From a virus: a DNA stretch of 64,000 nt. Made by a program: the position numbers and the translations under genes. Location of the stretch: IMG/VR virus record IMGVR_UViG_3300025816_000006, positions 98,691-162,690 of that record; one strand, given 5' to 3'. The notes under the pieces were generated by a model. The model was given only the letters and a program-made list of their open reading frames with translations. It made no database searches and was not told the DNA's origin. Shown piece after piece: positions 30,919 to 51,847 of the stretch. Position 1 is the first letter of the stretch. The number at the start of each line of letters is the position of its first letter.

Positions 30919-30947
30919 ATTATAGATTGAGAACTGTAAAAAATCAA
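30919..30947 (-). promoter_or_regulatory. sigma70-type promoter TTGATT-N17-TATAAT
   Basis: Upstream of nrdJ. Confidence 0.6.
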
Positions 30948-30959
30948 GCACAATTTGTG

Positions 30960-31265
30960 TTACTGTCTCATTAATTTTGTGATGTAATTTTCTACAACCC
31001 ACTCTATAATTAACTTCACGATAAGGCTAACTAGCATAGTGACAAGAGGGTTTCCTGCTATCTCTTCCTTTAGGTTTTCTTTTATATATTTTTTACATGC
31101 TTTTTTTGCTTGCGACTTTGTAAAGTCTTGAATCGCATCGCCCCTTACTGTTGCCCATTCGTCTGCGAGCAGCAGACAAGACTCGGCTATTCTTTTGTTT
31201 CTACTTCTTCCTTTAAACTTTTTTTCAATATCTAAACCTACTGTAGTTTTAATTTCACTGTTCAT
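30960..31265 (-). CDS. hypothetical protein with C-terminal hydrophobic helix
   Basis: PLVTMLVSLIVKLIIEWVV. Confidence 0.55.
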   Translation of the reverse strand: MNSEIKTTVGLDIEKKFKGRSRNKRIAESCLLLADEWATVRGDAIQDFTKSQAKKACKKYIKENLKEEIAGNPLVTMLVSLIVKLIIEWVVENYITKLMRQ

Positions 31266-31542
31266 TTTCTAACCACTCGTATTTAAAAGGTATATTAGGG
31301 AAGTAATCCAGTTTAAGTATCCCGCCGTCTTCCCTTAGCTCGATACCTTCTACGGTTAATTTAAGTCTTATTATCTTTTTTATTGTTACCGTTGGTTGAT
31401 TTTCCTGAAAGTCTATAACGATAGACTCGTCATTCTTATATATGTCTATAGAGGTTTCACTCTGAACCTTCAGGGTAAAGTCTAAGATTTTTAGACCGTC
31501 TTCGGAAAAGATAGAAGACATCGCTTGGTATGGATTCACCAT
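31255..31542 (-). CDS. hypothetical protein
   Basis: Coupled ORF. Confidence 0.5.
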   Translation of the reverse strand: MVNPYQAMSSIFSEDGLKILDFTLKVQSETSIDIYKNDESIVIDFQENQPTVTIKKIIRLKLTVEGIELREDGGILKLDYFPNIPFKYEWLENEQ

Positions 31543-32270
31543 TGGTTATACATACGTCCTACAGTTTCAGCAGACTGATAACCAGTTTTATGGGATTTAT
31601 ATTTACCGTTTACCATTAGAACAAACTCAGGCACTACCCTAGTTTGTTTATTAAACATTAGCTGTTTGTTAGATGGTTTGTCGATGTCTACAATCCTTAT
31701 CATGGCCTCTGGCTCTTCTGAAATCTTCCACTTAGGGTTGGTTTTAAATCTTGCCAACTCTTTTTGTTTCCAACTCTGGCAGGGTCCACACCAACTTGCT
31801 GTAAAAAATAATATTTGTTTTTTCTTAGATTTATTTAAACCATCTTGTTGATCTATTCCAGACTCTTTGCGTTCTTGTTCTCTGACTACCTGAGAAACCA
31901 CAAGAGGGGGCGTCTGTTCTTTTTTTTTTAGATCCCCCACTTGCGGTATTTGTTTAACTTCCTGTTGGGTTACGGGTTTGGCGGGTCTACACTGACAGCC
32001 CTCTGGACTCTCTGAGCAGGGACATGGCGTTTTATGACCATCTCCGTGGATAAGTTCTTTCGTGCCGTTACATTCGCATTCATTTTGAACATCACCTCCC
32101 TCCGTGTCAAACGATTTCTCGTTGACAATAAAAGCTACAAAACCTTCTGACCTTGCCTTATCAATACTAAATTCTGTTGGTAGTGCTGAATTTCCAGCAC
32201 CAACAAAAATAGACAAAGCAAACACTATTAAGACTACTACAGTAGTAGTGCTTAGTTGTAAGTTTTTCAT
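31536..32270 (-). CDS. exported thioredoxin-domain protein with Cys-rich linker
   Basis: N-terminal signal/TM; CECNG...GDGH..PCPC..CQC; FTASWCGPC. Confidence 0.8.
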   Translation of the reverse strand: MKNLQLSTTTVVVLIVFALSIFVGAGNSALPTEFSIDKARSEGFVAFIVNEKSFDTEGGDVQNECECNGTKELIHGDGHKTPCPCSESPEGCQCRPAKPVTQQEVKQIPQVGDLKKKEQTPPLVVSQVVREQERKESGIDQQDGLNKSKKKQILFFTASWCGPCQSWKQKELARFKTNPKWKISEEPEAMIRIVDIDKPSNKQLMFNKQTRVVPEFVLMVNGKYKSHKTGYQSAETVGRMYNQW

Positions 32271-33175
32271 ATTATTCTCGTATTTAGTTCGCGGGGTTTA
32301 AAACCTTCATATCCACTAAACGCCCAAGAGTCACCTTTCTTGAGAATACGTCTTTCTATTTCGTCTGCGTCAACCCAGAATGATCCATCTGGCTGATCGT
32401 TTCTTTTTGGTCCACCATTCCAAGTACCCCAAGAGTTTTGAACAAGCACTCCGGGACGTTTGTACTCGTCGTCTACGCCCAATATAGACATTTGATGCGC
32501 CCAACTACCTTTTGGCGAAGCGAATCCTTCGCTATCTCTTCTAGAGCTAAACCCTTGACTGCTTGCTATTGTAACGGCATATCCGTTAGAAATCAAGTCT
32601 CTAACTTCTTCGTATGTAGTTACTTTTGAGACGGTTAATATAGGGTGTTGTTTCGCTTTTGGTATTAAAGATTTAGGAACCCCTGCGCCCCCTCTTCCCC
32701 AACTTCTTGCTTTTGAGCCACTATAAGTTGTTAGGTCTACGTTTCCGTATTTACCTCTTGGTAGCGCTCCGTACTCGTTTACATATCTTGCCGCCCAAGC
32801 GCCAATAGATCCGTCTCCACGTATTCTACCTTTGCCTATCTGAACGCGACTTCCTGCATAAATATCTTCTGTTGCAGTTTCCGCTACCCATTCTTCAAAT
32901 TCTTTATTTAGAATTATGTCTACAGATTTAACAGCATCTACAGCATAAGCCGCCCCTTGAGCAACGCAGTCGCCAACGGTTTGTTTTCTTTTTGGAAATT
33001 TGCCGCCAGAAGCTTGCTTGATATAGTCGTAGAGTAAAACTTTCTTCCCTTTACCTGAACCCTTTATGGGAGTCCAAACATCTTGAAATACGGGAAATGG
33101 TAAGTCGTTCATTACCGCCTCTACCGCTGCCGGATCATCAACCCAGCCGTCATTACCGCCAAGAAATTCACTCAT
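32267..33175 (-). CDS. papain-like (C1) cysteine peptidase
   Basis: QTVGDCVAQG (Gln/Cys), WAHQM (His), QNSWG (Asn). Confidence 0.8.
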   Translation of the reverse strand: MSEFLGGNDGWVDDPAAVEAVMNDLPFPVFQDVWTPIKGSGKGKKVLLYDYIKQASGGKFPKRKQTVGDCVAQGAAYAVDAVKSVDIILNKEFEEWVAETATEDIYAGSRVQIGKGRIRGDGSIGAWAARYVNEYGALPRGKYGNVDLTTYSGSKARSWGRGGAGVPKSLIPKAKQHPILTVSKVTTYEEVRDLISNGYAVTIASSQGFSSRRDSEGFASPKGSWAHQMSILGVDDEYKRPGVLVQNSWGTWNGGPKRNDQPDGSFWVDADEIERRILKKGDSWAFSGYEGFKPRELNTRII

Positions 33176-33590
33176 ATTTAGTTGCCTCTGCTAAAGACTT
33201 AAATATATTGGCGAAGTCTTTTCTTTGTTGGTCTGTAGTCAGCGGTTTTGGCTGATTGTAACCAACGGAAACAAGATATTCTGAAACGGCATCAGTAAAC
33301 GCTGGGTACTTTTCTCTATTCCAACCGTATGACGATTGAACTCTACCAAGAATGGGATCAAACTGCTGTGTTGCTTGTAAAGACTTGCAGTTGTTTAAAT
33401 ATTCAGCAGAGCCAGCAAAAAGTTTGTAAATAGTTAGCTTATCTTCTTTAGATTCTATGGAAGAGAAAGCTTGAGATACATTACCTATAGCGGAATCGTT
33501 CGCTACAACCTGTGGGGTTGCGGCTGTATAGTTTTCATAGCCCGCAACGCCCACAAGTATCGCTACAATTAAGATTGCTTTACTTTTCAT
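33168..33590 (-). CDS. exported hypothetical protein
   Basis: N-terminal signal peptide/TM. Confidence 0.6.
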   Translation of the reverse strand: MKSKAILIVAILVGVAGYENYTAATPQVVANDSAIGNVSQAFSSIESKEDKLTIYKLFAGSAEYLNNCKSLQATQQFDPILGRVQSSYGWNREKYPAFTDAVSEYLVSVGYNQPKPLTTDQQRKDFANIFKSLAEATKYE

Positions 33591-33927
33591 CTAATTCTCC
33601 AGAAAATATTAGTGTATTTAACTTTACAACTAAATCAAAAGCTTCTTCTGACTCTATTTCTTTTGCTCTATCTTTTAAGTAGTTTAAAGCTTTAAAGTCT
33701 TCGTAGTCCTTGTTGTTTTCTGCTTCCTCGTCTTCTGAGTCTTGTTCTGGAAGTTCAAAGTTTAGAACAAGGTTTAGAATCTTTGGACCCAGTATAACCA
33801 GTGCGCCCACCCCAGCAACGGCAACCTGAATCATAGCCTGAGAGGTTAAGCCGTCAGAAAAAAACTGCTTAAAGATTAAAAGACCGAACGACCAACACAA
33901 AAGAGCCACACCTATTAGTAAATCCAT
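33580..33927 (-). CDS. two-TM membrane protein
   Basis: Two hydrophobic segments followed by acidic tail. Confidence 0.6.
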   Translation of the reverse strand: MDLLIGVALLCWSFGLLIFKQFFSDGLTSQAMIQVAVAGVGALVILGPKILNLVLNFELPEQDSEDEEAENNKDYEDFKALNYLKDRAKEIESEEAFDLVVKLNTLIFSGELDEK

Positions 33928-33928
33928 T

Positions 33929-34168
33929 TTACTCTCCTTCTGGTGAGTCGGGTTTTACTTCTTCTTTTGAGTTATCTTTTGCCCATTTAACAATCGTGTC
34001 TAATACCAAGGTGACGATTGGAATAACTAGCGCTGTGTACGTTCCTAAGTCAATAATATGAAGATTATTCATAATATATGTGATAAACGCCGCCACTGCA
34101 ACAAGTAGCCCGTTTTTCAAAACATTCATCAAATCGCCAGTGTTTATCTTAAATTTGTCCGAACCCAT
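33929..34168 (-). CDS. holin-like two-TM protein
   Basis: 79 aa, two TM helices, charged C-terminus. Confidence 0.45.
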   Translation of the reverse strand: MGSDKFKINTGDLMNVLKNGLLVAVAAFITYIMNNLHIIDLGTYTALVIPIVTLVLDTIVKWAKDNSKEEVKPDSPEGE

Positions 34169-34169
34169 T

Positions 34170-34736
34170 TCATTCTCCTTCTAAGTAAATTAAAAAACCA
34201 AAATTCTTGTTGTTGTCTCTGTATGGGAATCCTGTGTACTTTATCTTCTTTCCTTCCGTAGAAACAGTTTCAAATTTTAATTCTCTAAGTTTTTCTGAAC
34301 ATGATTCAAATTCTCTTAGGAAATTTTCTCTTTGAGGTTCGTCTATGTATGAAACCCAGTCTAATCCCTTTAAATTCTTTGTACCCATCACATTGTGGAA
34401 TTGTTCATTTGCCCACAATATGTTTCCACCTTCGTCTACTTCTAGTATTGCTTTCTCTATGTTATAAAATATTGCTTTGGATCTTTTGTCTAGCATGACT
34501 TGACGACGATCAATTCTGTTGACCGTATCTTTTATTGAAGATCCACCATTTGTTGTTAGTTCTTTTTTAATATCTTCTACAGAAGATACTAAAGTTTGTT
34601 GATTTTTATACAGTCTTATGGTTGGTTTTATTATGTATTTCCAGCCCCAAGCCAAGCTTGCGCAGAGTCCTCCCGCCAGCGATAATACTATTCCTACTAT
34701 CTCTAAACTCATACCAAAATTCATTTGTATCTCCAA
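34170..34736 (-). CDS. membrane-anchored PAS-domain protein
   Basis: TM, coiled segment with NGGSSIKD, then AILEVDEGGNILWANEQF...GLDWVSYIDEPQRE. Confidence 0.7.
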   Translation of the reverse strand: MEIQMNFGMSLEIVGIVLSLAGGLCASLAWGWKYIIKPTIRLYKNQQTLVSSVEDIKKELTTNGGSSIKDTVNRIDRRQVMLDKRSKAIFYNIEKAILEVDEGGNILWANEQFHNVMGTKNLKGLDWVSYIDEPQRENFLREFESCSEKLRELKFETVSTEGKKIKYTGFPYRDNNKNFGFLIYLEGE

Positions 34737-34764
34737 GAAAATACCCCTCCCCGAAAGGAGGGGC
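34735..34764 (-). terminator. rho-independent terminator
   Basis: GCCCCTCCT-TTCG-GGGAGGGGT then ATTTTCTT. Confidence 0.75.
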
Positions 34765-34792
34765 GTTTATGCTGCTTAATAAAGATTAAGTA

Positions 34793-35527
34793 TTAAGCTT
34801 CACGTAAATTCTTGGCTTTGTACTCATCAGTTGTTGGAGCAGCAAGTGCGCCAAAGTGGTAAGTAAGTTCACCGGGAACTGCCTTACTAGGAGCAATCTC
34901 AGCCTTCTCAGCAGCACTACCGTCAGCAGGATTGACCATAGTAGATGCATTACCTGCATTGCTACCTTTGGTGCGACCCGGAACGATATTTGTGCTAGGC
35001 ACAGCGTAGATGTCAAATGCTTCGTCTGCTTTAGATCCAATAAGTCTGTCAGTAGTTTTGGTTCTACCAACCTTAGTCGCAACATCATTAGATCCACCAT
35101 CAGAGTTAACAATCTCTCTAGCTGGACTGGCGAGACGAGTGTTTGCGCTTCCTGCAAGAGTGGTCGTTACGTTTCCACCCTGCATAACCCACTGGGTTGC
35201 GCTAGCGTTGAAACCCAAGACTGCGCCGTCAGCGACATTTGCTGCAATAGCTCCAGAAACACCAACTCTATCCGTTGTCGCAGCGCCAGTACCAGCGTTT
35301 GCTACAACTTTAGAGCCAATTCTTCTTTCGCCAAGGTTATCAGCTAAAGTATTGATGGAAAGATCGTTAGTTACTGGGCTGTCTGAAGCCTTGTTTCCAG
35401 CTTTGATGATTGTACCACCATCAACGACAGCGCCGGATACTGTGTTGGTAATGTCATAACCAGCAGCAAAAGTTGCGCCTTTTGTACCAGCCAAAAAAGC
35501 AGAGCCGTACCTTGAAGGTAATGCCAT
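34793..35527 (-). CDS. Ala/Gly/Thr-rich putative virion protein
   Basis: Composition; own GTGTATAATA upstream motif and terminator. Confidence 0.5.
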   Translation of the reverse strand: MALPSRYGSAFLAGTKGATFAAGYDITNTVSGAVVDGGTIIKAGNKASDSPVTNDLSINTLADNLGERRIGSKVVANAGTGAATTDRVGVSGAIAANVADGAVLGFNASATQWVMQGGNVTTTLAGSANTRLASPAREIVNSDGGSNDVATKVGRTKTTDRLIGSKADEAFDIYAVPSTNIVPGRTKGSNAGNASTMVNPADGSAAEKAEIAPSKAVPGELTYHFGALAAPTTDEYKAKNLREA

Positions 35528-35598: not shown

Positions 35599-36081
35599 TT
35601 ATACACCAGAATACAATCTGGATTTTATAATTTTAAGATTTTTTTTGATTCTTAGTCTCACCGCTTCCTTTGTGATAGATTTCTCTTTTGCTATCTCGCT
35701 TAGGGTTTTGTTTTCGTAGAATCTTCCGTACATAATGTCGGGATCTTTGCAGTTTTTTATTTCGTCCATTATATCTATGTTACTTGTGTAACCGCTTTTG
35801 TCTTCTATTAAATTAAATCCGCTATAATTGATAACTTTTAACTTTTTATTCTTGCCGTTATTATTTTTTATTTGCTTTGTACACTCTATTACTACTCCTT
35901 TATACAAAAATGTGGTTAATTTTGTATTTTTTTCTGGATTAAAGGACTTAACCGAGTTCCAAGCGGCATTTGTGATACAGCAATTTATCTCATCTTGAGA
36001 AAGAACTCCAGAGAAAGGTATTGATGCCTTTTTTGCAACATTAAGACAGTCCGAATCACTCAATATATCTTCAATTTTCAT
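35599..36081 (-). CDS. sigma70-like factor (regions 2 and 4)
   Basis: SFNPEKNTKLTTFLY; KTLSEIAKEKSITKEAVRLRIKK. Confidence 0.75.
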   Translation of the reverse strand: MKIEDILSDSDCLNVAKKASIPFSGVLSQDEINCCITNAAWNSVKSFNPEKNTKLTTFLYKGVVIECTKQIKNNNGKNKKLKVINYSGFNLIEDKSGYTSNIDIMDEIKNCKDPDIMYGRFYENKTLSEIAKEKSITKEAVRLRIKKNLKIIKSRLYSGV

Positions 36082-47070: not shown

Positions 47071-47125
47071 TTGTCAACTCCTTTCAGGGTACAAAACCCC
47101 TCCACTTATAAATATCTGGCGGTAA

Positions 47126-48196
47126 TTAGTAAGACCTATCTTCTCGGTATCGTGGGTCGGCAATTCTTGCAGTTCCTTCTTCATATCTCTTGAGAACTTC
47201 CTTATCTTCTTCCATTACTTTATTAGCAACCTTCATTTGATCTTCCTGTCCCATCAAACTTCTCAAAGGTTGAGCAAGTGCCTCGCCCAGTTCTTGAAAA
47301 GCAGCACAGGCACGAATCGCTGCGTCCTTGGACTTGAGTTCTATGTCCCAGTCGTATGCGTCACTGACAGGATGACCTGTAGGCATGTCTGCATGTTTGC
47401 GTGGATTCTTATGATCTGGCATAGACTCGCTGTAGTGGAACAGAGGTTTGATCTTACCCCAAGTCTTAACACATTCCTCCATAGGATAAAAATAATCTCC
47501 ATTAAAAGGAAGAAACTGTGAGGGATTACACTTGTCGTGTAGGTTATCGTAAGTAATTGGAATATCAAAATGTTCTAGCAAATTAGCAACAGTCCAACAA
47601 CCTTTGTCCTCGTTCTCAATCACTAGCCTGCTGGTTACGCTCTGATCGCACTTGTTTAGGTTGGACATGAAGCGAGCAGCAATATCGGCAAGGTCGCCCT
47701 TGGTGCAGTTGACATGAATATTCATAGGATTGTAGTAACTACGCTCACAACCCAGCATGTCCATGACCCAACCGTGATGGTTGAGTTCTGCAATAGTCTT
47801 GTCTACTGACGCTTGATTCTCGCTGGCAAGCACGTTGAACTGGTCTGGATGCGTAGACAAACGAACCTGCCATGTCTCGTTGTAATAAACGATGTCACGA
47901 AATTCCTCGATGATCTGCTCGTACTGAGGTACGTTATGTACGCCATACTCAAACTCTGGATGAGTCAGGCATGGAAACAATGCGCTTGATACACGGTATC
48001 CCCAGCCGTTGTCTGCACAGTGTTCTATGCAAAGACGAGTTACCTCCACGTTATTAAGCCAACGCTGGCCTAACTGATCTAGTGCGTACTCTGCACCATG
48101 CTCGTCACGCAGTTGGTTAAATCGCTTCCAAGTCATAGTCTGAAACTTGTAGCCTTGCTCTTTGAGTTCGTTGCTAATACAGCATAAGTTATACAT
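47126..48196 (-). CDS. uvsE: UV-damage endonuclease
   Basis: YRVSS, STHPDQF, NIHV, IENED, DNLH, FHYSE, KHAD, ELKSK. Confidence 0.9.
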   Translation of the reverse strand: MYNLCCISNELKEQGYKFQTMTWKRFNQLRDEHGAEYALDQLGQRWLNNVEVTRLCIEHCADNGWGYRVSSALFPCLTHPEFEYGVHNVPQYEQIIEEFRDIVYYNETWQVRLSTHPDQFNVLASENQASVDKTIAELNHHGWVMDMLGCERSYYNPMNIHVNCTKGDLADIAARFMSNLNKCDQSVTSRLVIENEDKGCWTVANLLEHFDIPITYDNLHDKCNPSQFLPFNGDYFYPMEECVKTWGKIKPLFHYSESMPDHKNPRKHADMPTGHPVSDAYDWDIELKSKDAAIRACAAFQELGEALAQPLRSLMGQEDQMKVANKVMEEDKEVLKRYEEGTARIADPRYREDRSY

Positions 48197-48283
48197 AGTT
48201 GATTCCTAAATGAGATAAACCCGATGACACACTATCATTATATAGTATGTATCGGGCATGTCAAGCATAAACTTTAAAAATAG

Positions 48284-48356
48284 TAGTGCGAATGGGAGTC
48301 GAACCCATACTGGATAGATTTTAAGTCTAGTGTCTCTGCCGTTGGACTACCGCACC
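48284..48356 (-). tRNA. tRNA-Leu(UAA) with short variable loop
   Basis: GGTGCGG.../CTAGA-CTTAAAA-TCTAT/TTCGACT; 73 nt. Confidence 0.85.
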
Positions 48357-48386
48357 AAAAAAAAGGGAGCAGGCGAACCCACTCCC
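48357..48386 (-). terminator. rho-independent terminator after rIIB
   Basis: GGGAGTGGG-TTCG-CCTGCTCCC-T8. Confidence 0.85.
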
Positions 48387-48407
48387 AACCACCAACCACA
48401 GTGGAGT

Positions 48408-49256
48408 TTACCAAGAATCGTTGATTACATCACCATCTTCTAGTTCGTCGAGGTAATCTTCCTCGTCACAGTAATCATCAACGACTGCTGTTTCAATAAT
48501 GTCTCTAGCGACATCTACTACCTCGTAGGTACGGCAGCGAAGTTTCTGGAAATCGCAATCCGTAGGGATGCTGACCACATCGCGTGGATCAATCTTAACC
48601 AAAACAACTTTACCGTCACTGCCTGCCCAACCGCTGGCATATTCAAAAGTACCAGCGTGAAGTCCAGAGCCGCAACCGTTGTTGCAGTTGTCGTCTACCT
48701 TGCGGCGTTTCATCGCTGGTGCATCGCCAACATTATTGCGATGCGAACAGCCAGTATATCGGTCAACCAAATCACCCTCTTTAAGAGTGTTACCATCCAA
48801 ATCATCTTGCTCTGGACCCGAATAAACTACTACACCCTTGTAGCCAAGGATGTAACCATCTGGCGTGATAGCAAGACCCTTATGCTGAATCCAATCGTAG
48901 AACTCAGTGACCGCACGATGACTGACGTTCTCGTACAGGTTTTCCAAGAACTTGAGCATGGGCTTATGATCCCATCCTTCTTTGAGCATCTGCACGATGC
49001 GACTGGTGATGACCTTGCGTACAGGTTCATCGTCATAGAACAGAAACCCGTCCACAAACCGGAAGTCGCCTTCCGACCAGTTCTCAATAGTATGACCAGT
49101 TTCCAGAAGTCTAATAAATTCTTCTGCGTCACCAGTCTTTACGCACTCTACCAGATTGATATATTCTGGATGAGTGGGATCGAAGATTACTGGCTTGTTT
49201 TCTACAGTAACGTGCCAGTGACCTTTTCCATCTTTGATGTGTGGAAGATGCGACAT
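48408..49256 (-). CDS. rIIB: rIIB-like protein
   Basis: FLENLYEN, ITPDG...YK, CGSGLH, VKIDPRDVVSIPTD, KLRCRTYEV. Confidence 0.88.
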   Translation of the reverse strand: MSHLPHIKDGKGHWHVTVENKPVIFDPTHPEYINLVECVKTGDAEEFIRLLETGHTIENWSEGDFRFVDGFLFYDDEPVRKVITSRIVQMLKEGWDHKPMLKFLENLYENVSHRAVTEFYDWIQHKGLAITPDGYILGYKGVVVYSGPEQDDLDGNTLKEGDLVDRYTGCSHRNNVGDAPAMKRRKVDDNCNNGCGSGLHAGTFEYASGWAGSDGKVVLVKIDPRDVVSIPTDCDFQKLRCRTYEVVDVARDIIETAVVDDYCDEEDYLDELEDGDVINDSW

Positions 49257-49322
49257 TCTAAATTCTCCTAAAAGTGATTGACCGAAAGTTATGTTTTAAT
49301 TATACTACTGTTATCGGATATG

Positions 49323-49520
49323 TCAATACATATCTTTAAGATTTTCTGTGGATTTTTCTACATCTTCGTAGTAGCGATCCATGTTGTCATCCACTCCTGC
49401 GTCCCATGCGTCATGGTCTAAAATATCTACAACATATGTTTCATCTGGACAGTAGACCGATTGAATGATTCCATCGTGAATCTCTACGACGATATGTTTA
49501 TCACTGTTTGTTTTACTCAC
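49323..49520 (-). CDS. hypothetical protein
   Basis: Coupled ORF. Confidence 0.5.
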   Translation of the reverse strand: MSKTNSDKHIVVEIHDGIIQSVYCPDETYVVDILDHDAWDAGVDDNMDRYYEDVEKSTENLKDMY

Positions 49521-49846
49521 TTGAATAACCCTTTCTTTTTCTTCTCTACATATCTTCCTAAAGTTCTATCCTGTATCGTCTTGTTGGTGGGATTGTAGTG
49601 TAGAAAATAACTACGCTCTGCAATCCTATTTGTCCAACAAAACTCACCTTCGCCTTCTACTTCATACTTCTCAAAAACATCAAGACGATGACGCTCGTAG
49701 TCTCCTTGGGTCCAGAGGTGAGCATCACGAATCTTTACGATATTTACTCCATCTGTGTTTACATTATTCTCTACCCATAACATTAACTCGTCCCTTGGAA
49801 TAATCTTCTTGTCTTTACGCATTGGTACTGGTGACGGTAAACCCAT
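49517..49846 (-). CDS. hypothetical protein
   Basis: ORF with RBS. Confidence 0.5.
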   Translation of the reverse strand: MGLPSPVPMRKDKKIIPRDELMLWVENNVNTDGVNIVKIRDAHLWTQGDYERHRLDVFEKYEVEGEGEFCWTNRIAERSYFLHYNPTNKTIQDRTLGRYVEKKKKGLFK

Positions 49847-51788
49847 TTACTTTCTCCTTAATGTGGTTGATTAAAATGTCTAACTGACTGTCGCTGGCGT
49901 GAGAACCATTCCAGTGTAGCAATTCTACAACAGGATACTCAGCAACAAACTTGTCTGCAATCTGCTGCAACTTATCTTCTGACTTGATCTTGTGACCAAG
50001 ACCCAAGACGTTGTAAGCAAACTTGTCAGAGTGTTCTGCTTTTGCCAACTCTACAGTGTCATTATACTCCTTGACAATCTCGTTGTCAAACCTGTTTCCA
50101 AGTTTTCTGAATAATTCTTGATACGGATTTTCACTATTTCTATTTTTCTCGATTACCTCGATGTCTAGCATACTTACTGACTCTCGCTGGATGTACTCGC
50201 CAAGACTAATCCAGTTGCCCTGCTTGAACGCTTTGGTTTTCAGGAAAGCAGTCTTGAGTCCGTAGATAGAATTGATAGCAACACTAAGATGCTCAAGACT
50301 ATCCATGATATTCTTAAATTGATCCATGCCGTAACTTTGCGATTCATACCTGTTGATCTCAACATACACTCGCTCACTACCATCGTTGTCAATCTCAACG
50401 TCATCCCAGCACTCATTTGCCTTGACTCTCCATCCAGTAGTCTTGCCGTTCCACTCAGCAACCTTTGATCTTGTAGGAGTTGATCCTCCGTAGCTATTGC
50501 TACTTTTCGGCACAACTTCTTCCAAATCTTCAATTAAATCGGCAGGAATACCAAACAAATCAATTTGCTCCTGCTTGAGCAGCACAATTTGTAAACCTCT
50601 CTTGTTGCGCATCCATTCCATGATACGAGTTTTCATGCGGTCTTTGTGCAGGAAGTACCTAATATCCCAATCGTTACTGTTTACAAGTGGCAACCTAGTA
50701 AGACTCTCGATGTCTGGTGAATCTCTGTGCCAAGTGCCTCGCTTGTACGCAGCAATACGTTCTTCGCCCTCTTTGACGGATGGTAGGCTGAACTTATCAA
50801 AGTCTAAGCTAGAACTTCTTAAAACGCTACGCATAGAACCTGAGTAAACTTCTTCTTTCTTCTTTGCTCTTGCGAAAGCACATTGCTCTGCTTCTAGTTT
50901 ATCGTAAACAACCTGTGAAAGACTATCCTGAACCTGCTGGATGCGAGACTTGAGCAATTTCTTGGTGCTGTCGTCCATCGACAATTCTTCTCGACCAGCA
51001 TTGAAAGACAGATCGCCAATGTTGAAGTTAATAAATCCAGACAGATCGCTTTTGTAATCGCTTGGAATCTTGTACGCGACATTACCCATACGAGCATACA
51101 GACTACCATAACCAGTATTGAACGAACCCTCATCGCAAACAAATTTGTAATATCCTTTGGATTTGAGAATATACTTTACTACTTCTTTGTCATTGATATT
51201 TGGCAATACATCAAAATATTTGAATACATTTACTGCTTCGTCCTCAAAGTCATCTTGCCTACCTTCTACTGACATGCTGACCTCCAAACCGTTTGGTTCG
51301 TCAGTATCGCTGGATGCAAGCGTGGCGATTTGTGGTTCACCATACTCGTCCTTGTAGCAGCAGTAGTCGGTCTTGACTCCGTTGTAATAACTTACAACAG
51401 TAAAACTGTCAACAAGAGAGAACGCTGACTTGCTGCCTAAACCCAACGCTCCCACAAAATCATTACTATTAGTTTTAGTAGAATGAAAGTAAGTAGTGAA
51501 TATTTCACGAACCTGCTGGTCCGAGAGTCCAGTCCCATAATCACGAACTGAGAAGTAAGGCTCAAGCAGAGTAGGAAGGTGAACATCCCAAGGTTCCCCG
51601 TTACCAGCAGCAACATGAGCATCATACGCATTGCAGTTGTATTCGCGAATGACGGCACGAACCTTGTTAGTGTAAATGTTACTGGACAGAATCTCAAATG
51701 CCTTGGCACTTGCCTGAATCTTGAAACCAGATGTTTTGAAGTCATTTGAAACGCTAACATCACGCTTATCATTTGAAAGAATCGCCAT
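49815..51788 (-). CDS. rIIA: rIIA-like GHKL ATPase
   Basis: ILSSNIYTNKVRAVIREYNCNAYDAH, VRDYGTGL, GALGLGSKS. Confidence 0.9.
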   Translation of the reverse strand: MAILSNDKRDVSVSNDFKTSGFKIQASAKAFEILSSNIYTNKVRAVIREYNCNAYDAHVAAGNGEPWDVHLPTLLEPYFSVRDYGTGLSDQQVREIFTTYFHSTKTNSNDFVGALGLGSKSAFSLVDSFTVVSYYNGVKTDYCCYKDEYGEPQIATLASSDTDEPNGLEVSMSVEGRQDDFEDEAVNVFKYFDVLPNINDKEVVKYILKSKGYYKFVCDEGSFNTGYGSLYARMGNVAYKIPSDYKSDLSGFINFNIGDLSFNAGREELSMDDSTKKLLKSRIQQVQDSLSQVVYDKLEAEQCAFARAKKKEEVYSGSMRSVLRSSSLDFDKFSLPSVKEGEERIAAYKRGTWHRDSPDIESLTRLPLVNSNDWDIRYFLHKDRMKTRIMEWMRNKRGLQIVLLKQEQIDLFGIPADLIEDLEEVVPKSSNSYGGSTPTRSKVAEWNGKTTGWRVKANECWDDVEIDNDGSERVYVEINRYESQSYGMDQFKNIMDSLEHLSVAINSIYGLKTAFLKTKAFKQGNWISLGEYIQRESVSMLDIEVIEKNRNSENPYQELFRKLGNRFDNEIVKEYNDTVELAKAEHSDKFAYNVLGLGHKIKSEDKLQQIADKFVAEYPVVELLHWNGSHASDSQLDILINHIKEKVNGFTVTSTNA

Positions 51789-51847
51789 AGTTAAATCTCC
51801 TAGTAAGTGGTTGGTATGTCTCTATTATACAGTGGTTATCGTCACTG

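Follow-up and report, generated by a model that had tools for sequence, protein, structure and literature searches.

Can a phage open the envelope of its host with a papain-family peptidase? The question is raised by a block of eight genes in the genome (163 kb) of a large uncultured marine phage, whose hosts are probably planctomycete bacteria. The analyzed window is a stretch of 64,000 nt of this genome (IMG/VR record IMGVR_UViG_3300025816_000006, positions 98,691–162,690). Planctomycete walls are reported to be protein-rich and to contain Cys-rich YTV proteins (PMC12673574). A sequence-only reading of the window had interpreted the block as a lysis or envelope module, and this interpretation is partly supported by the results presented below. 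Judging from the sequence, we hold with moderate confidence that the block may constitute an envelope-breaching (lysis-type) cassette, with a papain-family (C1-like) peptidase as its enzyme.

Organization and conservation of the gene block

The block occupies positions 30960–34736 and, as had been claimed, consists of eight co-oriented ORFs, all on the minus strand. The junctions between them are tight, with overlapping start and stop codons (in order: +1, +1, -11, -8, -4, -7 and -11 nt). An intrinsic-terminator-like hairpin (GCCCCTCC-TTTC-GGGGAGGGG followed by a T-run; positions 34743–34764, minus strand), located directly after the upstream gene, abuts the RBS of the first block gene. The downstream limit of the block is a sigma-70-like promoter (TTGATT-17-TATAAT; positions 30919–30947, minus strand) preceding a ribonucleotide reductase gene. 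The upstream gene (positions 34793–35527, minus strand) encodes a conserved Ala/Gly/Thr-rich protein of 244 aa with no assigned function; it possesses a strong RBS, a promoter-like site of the extended -10 type and a terminator of its own, and is always found upstream of the block in related phages. No late promoter was identified for the block. In RNA libraries of three studies, the block is covered by individual contigs of 2.8–3.4 kb, which indicates presence only.

Synteny of the block was found in approximately 12 distinct contigs of related uncultured phages, and most of the 22 loci from IMG/VR (approximately 12 distinct) retain the order 79 aa–115 aa–140 aa–302 aa–244 aa–95 aa(–101 aa). 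The 101-aa gene and the PAS and thioredoxin domains are present in some of these relatives and missing from others, and beyond the marine phage group conservation is detectable only for the peptidase. Both observations would suit a set of co-transcribed genes with unrelated functions (protease, redox, small membrane proteins) that do not form a module. We consider this quite improbable, since the core gene order is constant among contigs whose flanking genes differ, start and stop codons overlap, natural fusions occur (the 95-aa and 101-aa genes in relative L020, the peptidase and its downstream exported partner in P0251), and planctomycete loci repeatedly place an exported partner ahead of the peptidase, with 32 ORFs in this position representing one family.

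The peptidase is encoded by the best-conserved gene of the block (64–86% identity in related phages, compared to 21–78% for its block neighbors), and the 140-aa gene is second. PhoH and the reductase are less conserved than the peptidase in the same contigs, a relation that is unusual for endolysins.

The papain-fold peptidase and its relatives

The peptidase gene (positions 32267–33175, minus strand) encodes a leaderless protein of 302 aa, which was assigned to the papain-fold (C1-like) cysteine peptidases by profile searches, structure modelling and alignments. Comparison of its profile with the PDB placed xylellain (3ois) first (E 2e-4) and papain and cathepsins next, with the catalytic residues aligned to the papain motifs. 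The AlphaFold (AF2) model (pLDDT 94) matched 3ois in Foldseek (E 1.9e-13) and in VIA (Z 22.6, rmsd 3.2, 239 residues aligned), the latter also giving Z values of 17–21 for many cathepsins and papains. C70 and H227 show no variation in any of three family alignments; Q65 is fully conserved in two of them (A2, A3) and almost fully in the third (A1). In A2, N247 hardly varies and, overall, N247, S248 and W249 show little or no variation. Both the fold and the residues Q65/C70/H227/N247-S-W-G, in which an intact C1 active site (Q/C/H/N) had been seen, were thus borne out. As modelled, the protein is a true papain-fold (C1-like) peptidase, and hydrolysis is predicted.

No Pfam match was obtained for this protein at E ≤ 0.1 and the PF00112 gathering score was not reached. 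Three homologues at 37–42% identity (P0237, P0257, P0205) do reach it, which indicates that the phage enzyme represents a divergent subfamily and is not a typical C1 member. It shares with the papain family (MEROPS C1/PF00112; nearest structure, xylellain of Xylella fastidiosa) the two-lobe fold, the Gln-Cys...His...Asn-Ser-Trp-Gly pattern and an N-terminal segment aligning with pro-segments, but is only 12–22% identical to its members, is phage-encoded and stands in an envelope-linked gene context. The pro-segment is also very short (approximately 40 residues): in VIA, proenzymes align from model residue 1 and mature enzymes from approximately residue 40, and residues 1–40 match the C-terminal part of C1 propeptides in the structural alignment. 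We infer from the model that they may form a pro-segment-like piece which holds the peptidase latent. A further difference from the papain family is that C70 is the only Cys, so that the enzyme has no disulfides.

The phage peptidase has no signal peptide. However, N-terminal extensions are present on 36 of 150 cluster representatives of its family and include RR-x-FLK Tat signals, TM anchors and a lipobox (Sec/lipoprotein) signal, which indicates that the family acts outside the cytoplasm, in the envelope. Of 17 leaderless loci, 11 have a small TM ORF in the 2.5 kb upstream, compared to 6 of 38 loci with exported or anchored forms, counts that are confounded by shared ancestry and GC content. 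The family is concentrated in Planctomycetota, above all in Gemmataceae (30 of 120 genomes), where it is patchy and multi-copy; it was not found among 50,697 deposited phage records. Its members are heavily loaded with inteins at the catalytic motifs, which fits an indispensable gene.

A leaderless enzyme might also be a cytoplasmic protease with intracellular targets, serving host take-over, host-protein turnover or the processing of phage non-structural proteins, its membrane-protein neighbors being functionally unrelated. The adjoining replication and nucleotide-metabolism genes point the same way, as does the strong conservation combined with many inteins, reminiscent of core metabolic phage genes. 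We nevertheless regard such a role as unlikely, given the Tat, Sec, lipoprotein or TM leaders of same-family relatives. Moreover, in all relatives the peptidase remains translationally coupled to the exported 140-aa and thioredoxin proteins, and its planctomycete neighbors are exported, comprising the upstream family mentioned above and 14 downstream ORFs in two small clusters.

The binned contig L035, in which a head-tail adaptor gene precedes the peptidase gene and an HK97-type capsid gene lies 2 kb upstream of it, might suggest a virion maturation protease or another virion-associated enzyme. The Ala/Gly/Thr-rich protein encoded upstream of the block, which looks abundant and possibly structural, would be in line with this. 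Such a function is extremely improbable, since cytoplasmic proheads are out of reach for exported relatives and the phage has a separate head-maturation protease (phrog_94, 133, 2976, 1684). The latter is encoded in the plus-strand structural arm, approximately 45 kb from the block and on the opposite strand; the peptidase was therefore rejected as a candidate prohead protease.

Membrane-associated and exported partners

The first block gene (positions 34170–34736, minus strand, as listed) encodes a protein of 188 aa composed of a TM segment, a coiled coil and a probable PAS domain, as judged from hydropathy and TIGR00229. It probably starts at ATG 34724, preceded by a GGAG RBS, which gives 184 aa. 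Hydropathy analysis of the 188-aa form revealed one TM segment (11–29), and the positive-inside rule places the N-terminus outside and the PAS domain in the cytoplasm. The domain exceeds the cut-off of NCBIfam TIGR00229 (24.2 vs 22.9 bits) and falls below those of Pfam (PAS_9, 21.3 vs 27; PAS_8, 19.6 vs 21.8), while the PDB profile search retrieved a PAS sensor at E 0.013 at best. Other relatives encode a shorter TM-coiled-coil protein in which PAS is missing. A function of this protein as a timer is speculation.

The presence of two small two-TM proteins ahead of the peptidase was confirmed by hydropathy, with two TM segments in each. The 79-aa protein (positions 33929–34168, minus strand), encoded two genes upstream of the peptidase and conserved in relatives, has a charged C-terminal tail (KWAKDNSKEEVKPDSPEGE), and alignments revealed a conserved KW.KDNT motif. 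It is a holin-like candidate of class II holin-like size and topology. Holins are not recognizable by homology. The 115-aa protein (positions 33580–33927, minus strand) carries an acidic C-terminal domain of approximately 60 aa, as defined by hydropathy and alignments, and is a candidate second holin, antiholin or partner.

The 140-aa gene (positions 33168–33590, minus strand) shares 8 nt with the peptidase gene. Its product has a signal-peptide-like N-terminus, with a short h-region (MKSK-AILIVAILVGVAG) that was recognized by eye and lies under the TM threshold, followed by a conserved domain of approximately 110 aa; approximately 200 unannotated clusters are related to it. A weak profile match (E 0.005, probability 7%) was obtained with the exported partner encoded upstream of planctomycete peptidases.

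Directly downstream of the peptidase, a gene at positions 31536–32270 (minus strand) encodes a thioredoxin protein of 244 aa, which was analyzed by hydropathy, Pfam searches and alignments. It consists of a hydrophobic N-terminus (segment 6–24), a conserved motif (EGFVAFIVN + CxC..HGDGHKTPCPC), a linker and a WCGPC thioredoxin domain. The domain scores above the PF00085 cut-off (36.1 vs 23.5 bits) and its closest PDB matches are classical thioredoxins (TrxA/Trx h, WCGPC), while the whole protein stays far from the TIGR01068 equivalog (28 bits; cut-off 96.8). Unlike classical thioredoxins, the phage domain follows a hydrophobic leader and a CxC/His-rich motif, which indicates an extracytoplasmic location, and is dispensable in some relatives. 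The sequence-only reading was therefore correct in describing an exported (or anchored) WCGPC thioredoxin, but its “Cys-rich linker” is in fact the conserved CxC...HGDGHKTPCP motif, which is better conserved than the thioredoxin domain itself. The suggested function as a wall reductase was not supported, since some close relatives (L007, L019, L020) are devoid of the thioredoxin domain.

The block ends with genes for an acidic protein of 95 aa (positions 31255–31542, minus strand) and a basic protein of 101 aa (positions 30960–31265, minus strand). The former, examined by modelling and alignments, is predicted to contain one helix and eight strands (pLDDT 85) and its model has no recognizable fold relative; the latter has a C-terminal TM segment by hydropathy (tail-anchored).

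Genomic context and the proposed mode of lysis

It had been noted that no glycosidase or amidase endolysin is encoded in the window. This was upheld, and the search for a canonical endolysin in the rest of the genome was also empty: a six-frame search of the whole genome (163 kb) with 11 Pfam families of peptidoglycan-hydrolase or peptidoglycan-binding domains yielded no match (PF00959, PF01510, PF01464, PF01551, PF13539, PF05838, PF00182, PF07486, PF11860, PF02557 and PF01471). PHROG scans of 122 ORFs identified no lysis family or enzyme among the matches listed, although a divergent endolysin could escape such scans. Inspection of the ORF list by eye revealed no lipobox ORF, and hence no spanin of this kind, in or embedded in the block, and the 140-aa protein is not coiled-coil-like.

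The early/replication arm harbors the block, with an ECF-like sigma gene on one side and the gene for ribonucleotide reductase on the other; the block does not follow tail genes and is adjoined by nucleotide-metabolism genes. This position among early or middle genes would be consistent with envelope remodelling during infection rather than lysis, i.e. with a host-derived auxiliary module that might serve receptor removal, superinfection exclusion or reshaping of the periplasm. The very high sequence conservation and the patchy, multi-copy occurrence of the family in Gemmataceae fit this explanation. So do chromosomal, apparently non-prophage copies in Gemmataceae with housekeeping genes on their flanks; in Limnoglobus roseus a peptidase trio is set among housekeeping genes, which suggests a non-lytic cellular role for some family members. 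However, the phage peptidase lacks an export signal, so that the envelope could be reached only upon permeabilization of the membrane, and the genome yielded no other candidate lysis enzyme. On balance, remodelling appears rather unlikely.

In the lysis scheme that we favor, whose elements (holin function, latency and activation, substrate, role of the thioredoxin, timing and lysis itself) are inferred, the peptidase would be synthesized as a leaderless cytoplasmic protein and kept latent by its N-terminal pro-segment-like piece. The 79-aa two-TM protein, perhaps together with the 115-aa protein, would permeabilize the inner membrane in a holin-like manner, giving the enzyme access to the periplasm. 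There it would meet the 140-aa protein and the Cys-motif/thioredoxin protein, both exported earlier, and attack the host wall by cutting a load-bearing component, either peptide or protein. The thioredoxin would most plausibly keep or restore the catalytic thiol of C70 in the oxidizing periplasm; alternatively, it may open disulfides in the substrate.

A close parallel is provided by the holin-endolysin(-spanin) cassettes of tailed phages, of the lambda S-R-Rz/Rz1 type. As in these, the gene of a leaderless hydrolase is closely preceded by one for a small two-TM protein whose tail is charged, coupling of the genes is tight, additional membrane or periplasmic proteins are present and no other lytic enzyme was found. 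In contrast, the enzyme has a C1 papain fold and is not a glycosidase, amidase or known peptidoglycan endopeptidase, the lipoprotein spanin is absent, a thioredoxin and a PAS protein are added, the block is not located at the end of a late operon, and its lysis role is putative.

Some endolysins are exported, either as SAR proteins (P1 Lyz, phage 21 R) or by means of a signal peptide (fOg44 Lys44), and P1 Lyz becomes active when a thiol-disulfide rearrangement sets its catalytic Cys free. By analogy, P1 Lyz may be viewed as an earlier case of a Cys-dependent lysis enzyme under redox control. The coexistence of leaderless and exported or anchored forms within one enzyme family is common to both, but the peptidase family differs in its catalytic fold and its Tat-type leaders, and release of its TM anchors is putative. 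Baculovirus V-CATH, which acts with chitinase, is a papain-family protease made as a latent precursor, and late in infection it dissolves host structures and frees the progeny. The phage peptidase resembles it as a virus-encoded papain-family protease with (proposed) latency, but is not a close relative; V-CATH belongs to a eukaryotic virus, causes tissue liquefaction instead of rupture of a cell envelope, and involves neither a holin nor a thioredoxin.

The block may thus represent the holin-endolysin theme with an enzyme class new to it, a lysis role being about evenly balanced, and it is probably an undescribed way of opening a host envelope. As a tentative and rather doubtful generalization, proteolysis rather than peptidoglycan hydrolysis might be the way in which planctomycete phages, and some other uncultured ones, lyse their hosts: a papain-family zymogen, released by a holin or exported, would digest a protein-based, disulfide-bonded wall layer, while an exported thioredoxin-type partner would reduce wall disulfides or keep the only thiol of the enzyme active. 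If true, this would define a new class of endolysins and a redox-assisted mechanism of lysis.

Organization and setting of the eight-gene block

The sequence-only reading had placed a run of eight tightly coupled genes on the minus strand at positions 30960-34736, and ORF analysis recovered it there, with junctions consisting of 1-nt gaps or overlaps of 4-11 nt. The start codon of the first gene is most likely ATG 34724, preceded by GGAG. Hydropathy profiles agreed with the transmembrane (TM) segments claimed earlier, namely one in the 188-aa protein and two each in the 79-aa and 115-aa proteins; they also revealed an N-terminal hydrophobic segment in the 244-aa thioredoxin protein (31536..32270, minus strand) and a C-terminal TM segment in the 101-aa protein. 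The thioredoxin assignment was upheld by Pfam (36.1 bits, cut-off 23.5) and by classical thioredoxins as the best PDB matches. Two other claims held in part: the PAS domain of the 188-aa protein passed the NCBIfam cut-off (24.2 versus 22.9 bits) but missed those of Pfam, and for the 140-aa protein, described as exported, only a short signal-peptide-like h-region could be read from the sequence. Six of the eight proteins have no match in PHROGs or Pfam.

The peptidase encoded in the block was found at 22 IMG/VR loci, 19 of which are close relatives. The core order 79 aa-115 aa-140 aa-peptidase-Cys-motif/thioredoxin-95 aa (mostly followed by 101 aa) is kept in all 19, as scored for the core part lying within each fetched stretch. 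The block is therefore not a chance arrangement, and the view that these genes form no real module is improbable. Neither the block nor the peptidase and its TM-anchored and Tat-type relatives had a nucleotide or protein match among 50,697 deposited phage genomes.

Some relatives of the block carry additional genes. A Ser/Thr/Gly-rich beta-type protein of 168-194 aa (ending ...VIGLD or ...VMGII) is encoded within or beside it at three loci (L004:783-1367, L009:1756-2262 and L016:9731-10252); this protein, which the window lacks, may be structural. At L016:8918-9148 an extra 76-aa ORF with one TM segment and an extreme Cys run (CESCNTCNTCDDCCCKTCCCCC) separates the peptidase and thioredoxin genes.

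The source phage record in IMG/VR comprises 162,690 bp, of which the window takes up bases 98,691-162,690, and is rated 98% complete. ORF maps showed (i) a plus-strand structural arm at about 10-86 kb of the genome, encoding terminase, capsid, head-maturation protease, tail fibres and giant tail proteins, and (ii) a minus-strand arm running from 162 kb down to 86 kb. The latter begins with small early genes preceded by strong sigma-70-like promoters, a glycosyltransferase, an ECF-like sigma factor, a 244-aa Ala/Gly-rich protein and the block, and continues with class II ribonucleotide reductase, dUTPase, PhoH, a RecA/UvsX-like protein, DnaB helicase, primase, polymerase and a sugar island. The sigma factor gene, two genes upstream of the block (35599-36081, minus strand), encodes a 160-aa ECF-type member of the sigma-70 family whose region 4 exceeds the Pfam cut-off and whose NCBIfam ECF matches are weak; it is a candidate late or middle sigma factor of the phage.

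The Ala/Gly/Thr-rich 244-aa protein (MALP...GQRTNWS...PGEL.Y; 34793-35527, minus strand) is conserved and always encoded immediately upstream of the block. An extended -10 site, a strong RBS and a dedicated terminator make it likely that the product is abundant. The terminator, a strong intrinsic-terminator-like hairpin 3' of this gene (34764-34743, minus strand), abuts the RBS of the first block gene, and a sigma-70-like promoter (30947-30919, minus strand) lies 5' of the reductase gene. Given this hairpin before the block and this promoter after it, transcription probably enters the block by reading through the terminator, starting at the extended -10 promoter of the 244-aa gene or farther upstream. 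RNA-library contigs from three marine studies each span the block without a break (31087-34472, 31204-33997 and 31704-34985); they indicate presence only and carry neither level, strand nor timing.

A divergent papain-fold peptidase

The 302-aa block protein (32267..33175, minus strand) has no Pfam or PHROG match, and a single-sequence search of the PDB was also empty. Its family is very large and unannotated: clustering at 90% identity gives more than 939 clusters, and at 50% identity 1708 representatives. A profile of 54 sequences matched xylellain, a bacterial C1 protease (3ois), over residues 57-283 (E 2e-4), followed by papain, caricain and cathepsins K and B. The AlphaFold model (pLDDT 94, pTM 0.93) gave xylellain, procathepsin B and Legionella Lpg2622 as top Foldseek matches (E 1e-13 to 1e-9), and VIA-align superimposed it on xylellain with Z 22.6 (rmsd 3.2, 239 residues), dozens of C1 enzymes scoring Z 17-21. 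The Q/C/H/N residues previously described as intact are also conserved in the family: C70, the sole Cys of the protein, and H227 are invariant, and Q65, N247, S248 and W249 are invariant or nearly so. Three homologues with 37-42% identity to the window peptidase reach the Pfam Peptidase_C1 cut-off. The protein is a divergent member of the papain superfamily.

Proenzymes align with the model from residue 1, mature enzymes only from about residue 40; the conserved N-terminal piece (GWVDDP...LP.P.F) therefore takes the place of the C-terminal part of the C1 pro-segment, which suggests, as far as the model goes, a latent form. In xylellain, the N-terminal region reportedly covers the active-site cleft.

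Inteins are present in the family, as 33 insertions of more than 100 aa among 150 cluster representatives (up to two per protein), several with LAGLIDADG endonuclease domains. They lie at the three catalytic motifs, between GD and C70, between W.H227 and C, and between N247/SWG and C (e.g. L016:6879-8000, L017:1-345 and representatives P0121-P0260). A short conserved C-terminal tail (...DWF... then F/L-A-L/M-A-W/P/Y), which marine phage peptidases lack, was observed in the TM-anchored high-GC homologues P0237, P0205, P0170, P0256, P0266 and P0270.

N-terminal extensions of at least 20 residues occur in 36 of the 150 representatives. They include twin-arginine signals (MDRRNFLK..., MNRRDALK..., MLSRRDFL...), Ala/Gly/Thr-rich TM anchors (P0237, P0205, P0257, P0251 and more) and Sec or lipoprotein signals (P0226, with LTSC, and P0248). 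Since members are exported by three different routes, the family works outside the cytoplasm. The phage enzyme itself is leaderless, as a cytoplasmic protease with unrelated neighbours would be; with exported relatives and a conserved gene order, this explanation is rather unlikely. An enzyme of the exported family that lacks a leader would reach the outside only via a breached membrane, and the leaderless and exported forms follow the same logic as holin-dependent and exported endolysins. Consistent with this, a small TM ORF lies at most 2.5 kb upstream of the peptidase gene at 11 of 17 loci with leaderless and 6 of 38 with exported or anchored forms, counts that are confounded by GC content and drawn from loci that are not independent, because the marine contigs represent one lineage. 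ORF calls are noisy at loci of high GC content.

Partner proteins and planctomycete relatives

In the marine group of related contigs, the 140-aa gene ranks second in conservation (41-71% identity) and overlaps that of the peptidase by 8 nt. The family of its product (about 200 clusters, all unannotated) gave no PDB match as a profile, and the ESM Atlas held nothing for the 140-aa or 95-aa protein. A homologue of the 140-aa protein is also present on a 2.9-Mb contig.

A pattern scan of one genome per species, with patterns biased toward planctomycete-type sequences, found 65 peptidase loci, most of them labelled Planctomycetota (Gemmataceae, Gemmata, Limnoglobus roseus PX52, Fimbriiglobus, Singulisphaera, Isosphaeraceae, Pirellulales). 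The marine-type peptidase profile detected the gene in 30 of 120 further Gemmataceae genomes (up to four copies), in 4 of 300 sampled Planctomycetota genomes and in none of 300 sampled genomes from the phylum of a Sphingorhabdus MAG. The patchy, multi-copy distribution in Gemmataceae fits prophage-borne genes and supports a planctomycete host for the phage. PHROG scans of the upstream genes of prophage-like Gemmata loci gave nothing useful.

At the planctomycete loci, 32 upstream neighbour ORFs form one exported family of about 170-260 aa, whose C-terminal ~100 residues align end to end but weakly with the 140-aa family (hhalign E 0.005, probability 7%). Downstream, 14 neighbours are small, exported and share a KPLVVFVG motif; in P0251, a domain of this type is fused to the peptidase. 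On the chromosome of L. roseus PX52 (L038:7246-9298), an exported ~220-aa protein, a TM-anchored peptidase and a small exported KPLVVFVG protein are encoded together, and about 30 other planctomycete loci have the same set. It is flanked by housekeeping genes (HEAT/FlgI-like lipoprotein, aldo-keto reductase, MoaA-like), the aldo-keto reductase recurring at two further loci (L050 and L056), and looks like a chromosomal, possibly domesticated, copy.

No homologue of the thioredoxin protein adjoins the peptidase at planctomycete loci according to a family HMM, BLASTP found no similarity between the P0251 C-terminal domain and the window thioredoxin protein, and three hhalign comparisons were negative: the downstream KPLVVFVG proteins with the thioredoxin family, TM-coiled-coil proteins with the PAS protein, and the small downstream family with the 95-aa family. 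Conservation of the thioredoxin pairing beyond the marine group is therefore not claimed. The best-conserved part of the thioredoxin protein is EG(Y/F)VAF(I/V)VN ... CxCxGTG..HGDGHKTPCP. The WCGPC domain is missing from three loci (L007, L019 and L020), so a wall-reducing step is not essential to the whole group. Only part of the marine group has the PAS domain, the others encoding a shorter TM-coiled-coil protein in its place.

At L020:7157-7762, the 95-aa and 101-aa genes are merged into one ORF of 201 aa, which ties the beta-rich domain to a C-terminal membrane anchor. A staphostatin- or chagasin-like protease inhibitor was considered for the 95-aa protein (model pLDDT 85) but is not supported (Foldseek E > 0.25; best VIA Z 5.2, to unrelated folds). 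The model appears to have no fold relative by Foldseek or VIA, which is not proof of a new fold.

Endolysin search and a putative route through the envelope

The earlier statement that the window has no canonical endolysin was extended to the whole genome and stood: a six-frame HMM search detected no Phage_lysozyme, Amidase_2, SLT, Peptidase_M23, Peptidase_M15_4, GH108, GH19, Hydrolase_2, VanY or PG_binding_1 domain. The Muramidase HMM also gave no match, an uninformative result, as its control matched nowhere. PHROG scans covering 122 ORFs (90 aa or longer) picked up rIIA/rIIB, polymerase, nucleases and, in the structural arm, head-maturation protease families; no lysis enzyme was among the best 25 of 33-51 families per list. 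With head-maturation proteases encoded in the structural arm and the papain-type enzyme in the other, a virion maturation role for the latter is very improbable.

Minus-arm ORFs at approximately 47100-51800 (minus strand) match two "lysis inhibitor" families of PHROGs strongly, rIIA (E 8e-117) and rIIB (E 2e-64), the position being approximate because the batch scan tallies families, not individual ORFs.

We give roughly even chances to the block being an envelope-breaching cassette. The fold, the catalytic residues, the export signals of relatives, the synteny and the absence of known muralytic domains are observed; its functional steps are all inferred. The latent C1 peptidase would build up in the cytoplasm until the inner membrane is opened by the 79-aa two-TM protein, possibly with the 115-aa protein. 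It would then meet its pre-exported partners and cut a load-bearing wall peptide or protein, while the thioredoxin, where present, may protect or regenerate the single catalytic thiol or reduce the substrate. Non-lytic envelope remodelling would likewise place the peptidase outside the cytoplasm; with no canonical endolysin found in the genome, it is an unlikely reading, if one of some weight. The envelope-breaching cassette would work like a holin-endolysin cassette, from which it differs in having no known muralytic class and no spanins.

Planctomycete walls have been reported to consist mainly of protein alongside peptidoglycan, and Cys-rich YTV proteins to occur in those of Rhodopirellula, Gemmata and Tuwongella (PMC12673574).

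Our literature searches turned up no report of C1 peptidases acting in phage lysis, nor any on the lysis genes of phages that infect planctomycetes, and to our knowledge the well-studied lysis systems of phages all rely on a peptidoglycan hydrolase. If a papain-type protease does give lysis here, it would represent a new enzyme class for phage lysis and would account for the missing endolysin in these phages, a group abundant in marine and fresh waters. The inteins at the three catalytic motifs offer a natural source of tools for activating proteases conditionally, and the peptidases could serve for planctomycete lysis or transformation. The make-up of the planctomycete envelope, protein layer versus peptidoglycan, has long been debated; the peptidase could be used to probe it, and its substrate would reveal the load-bearing component.
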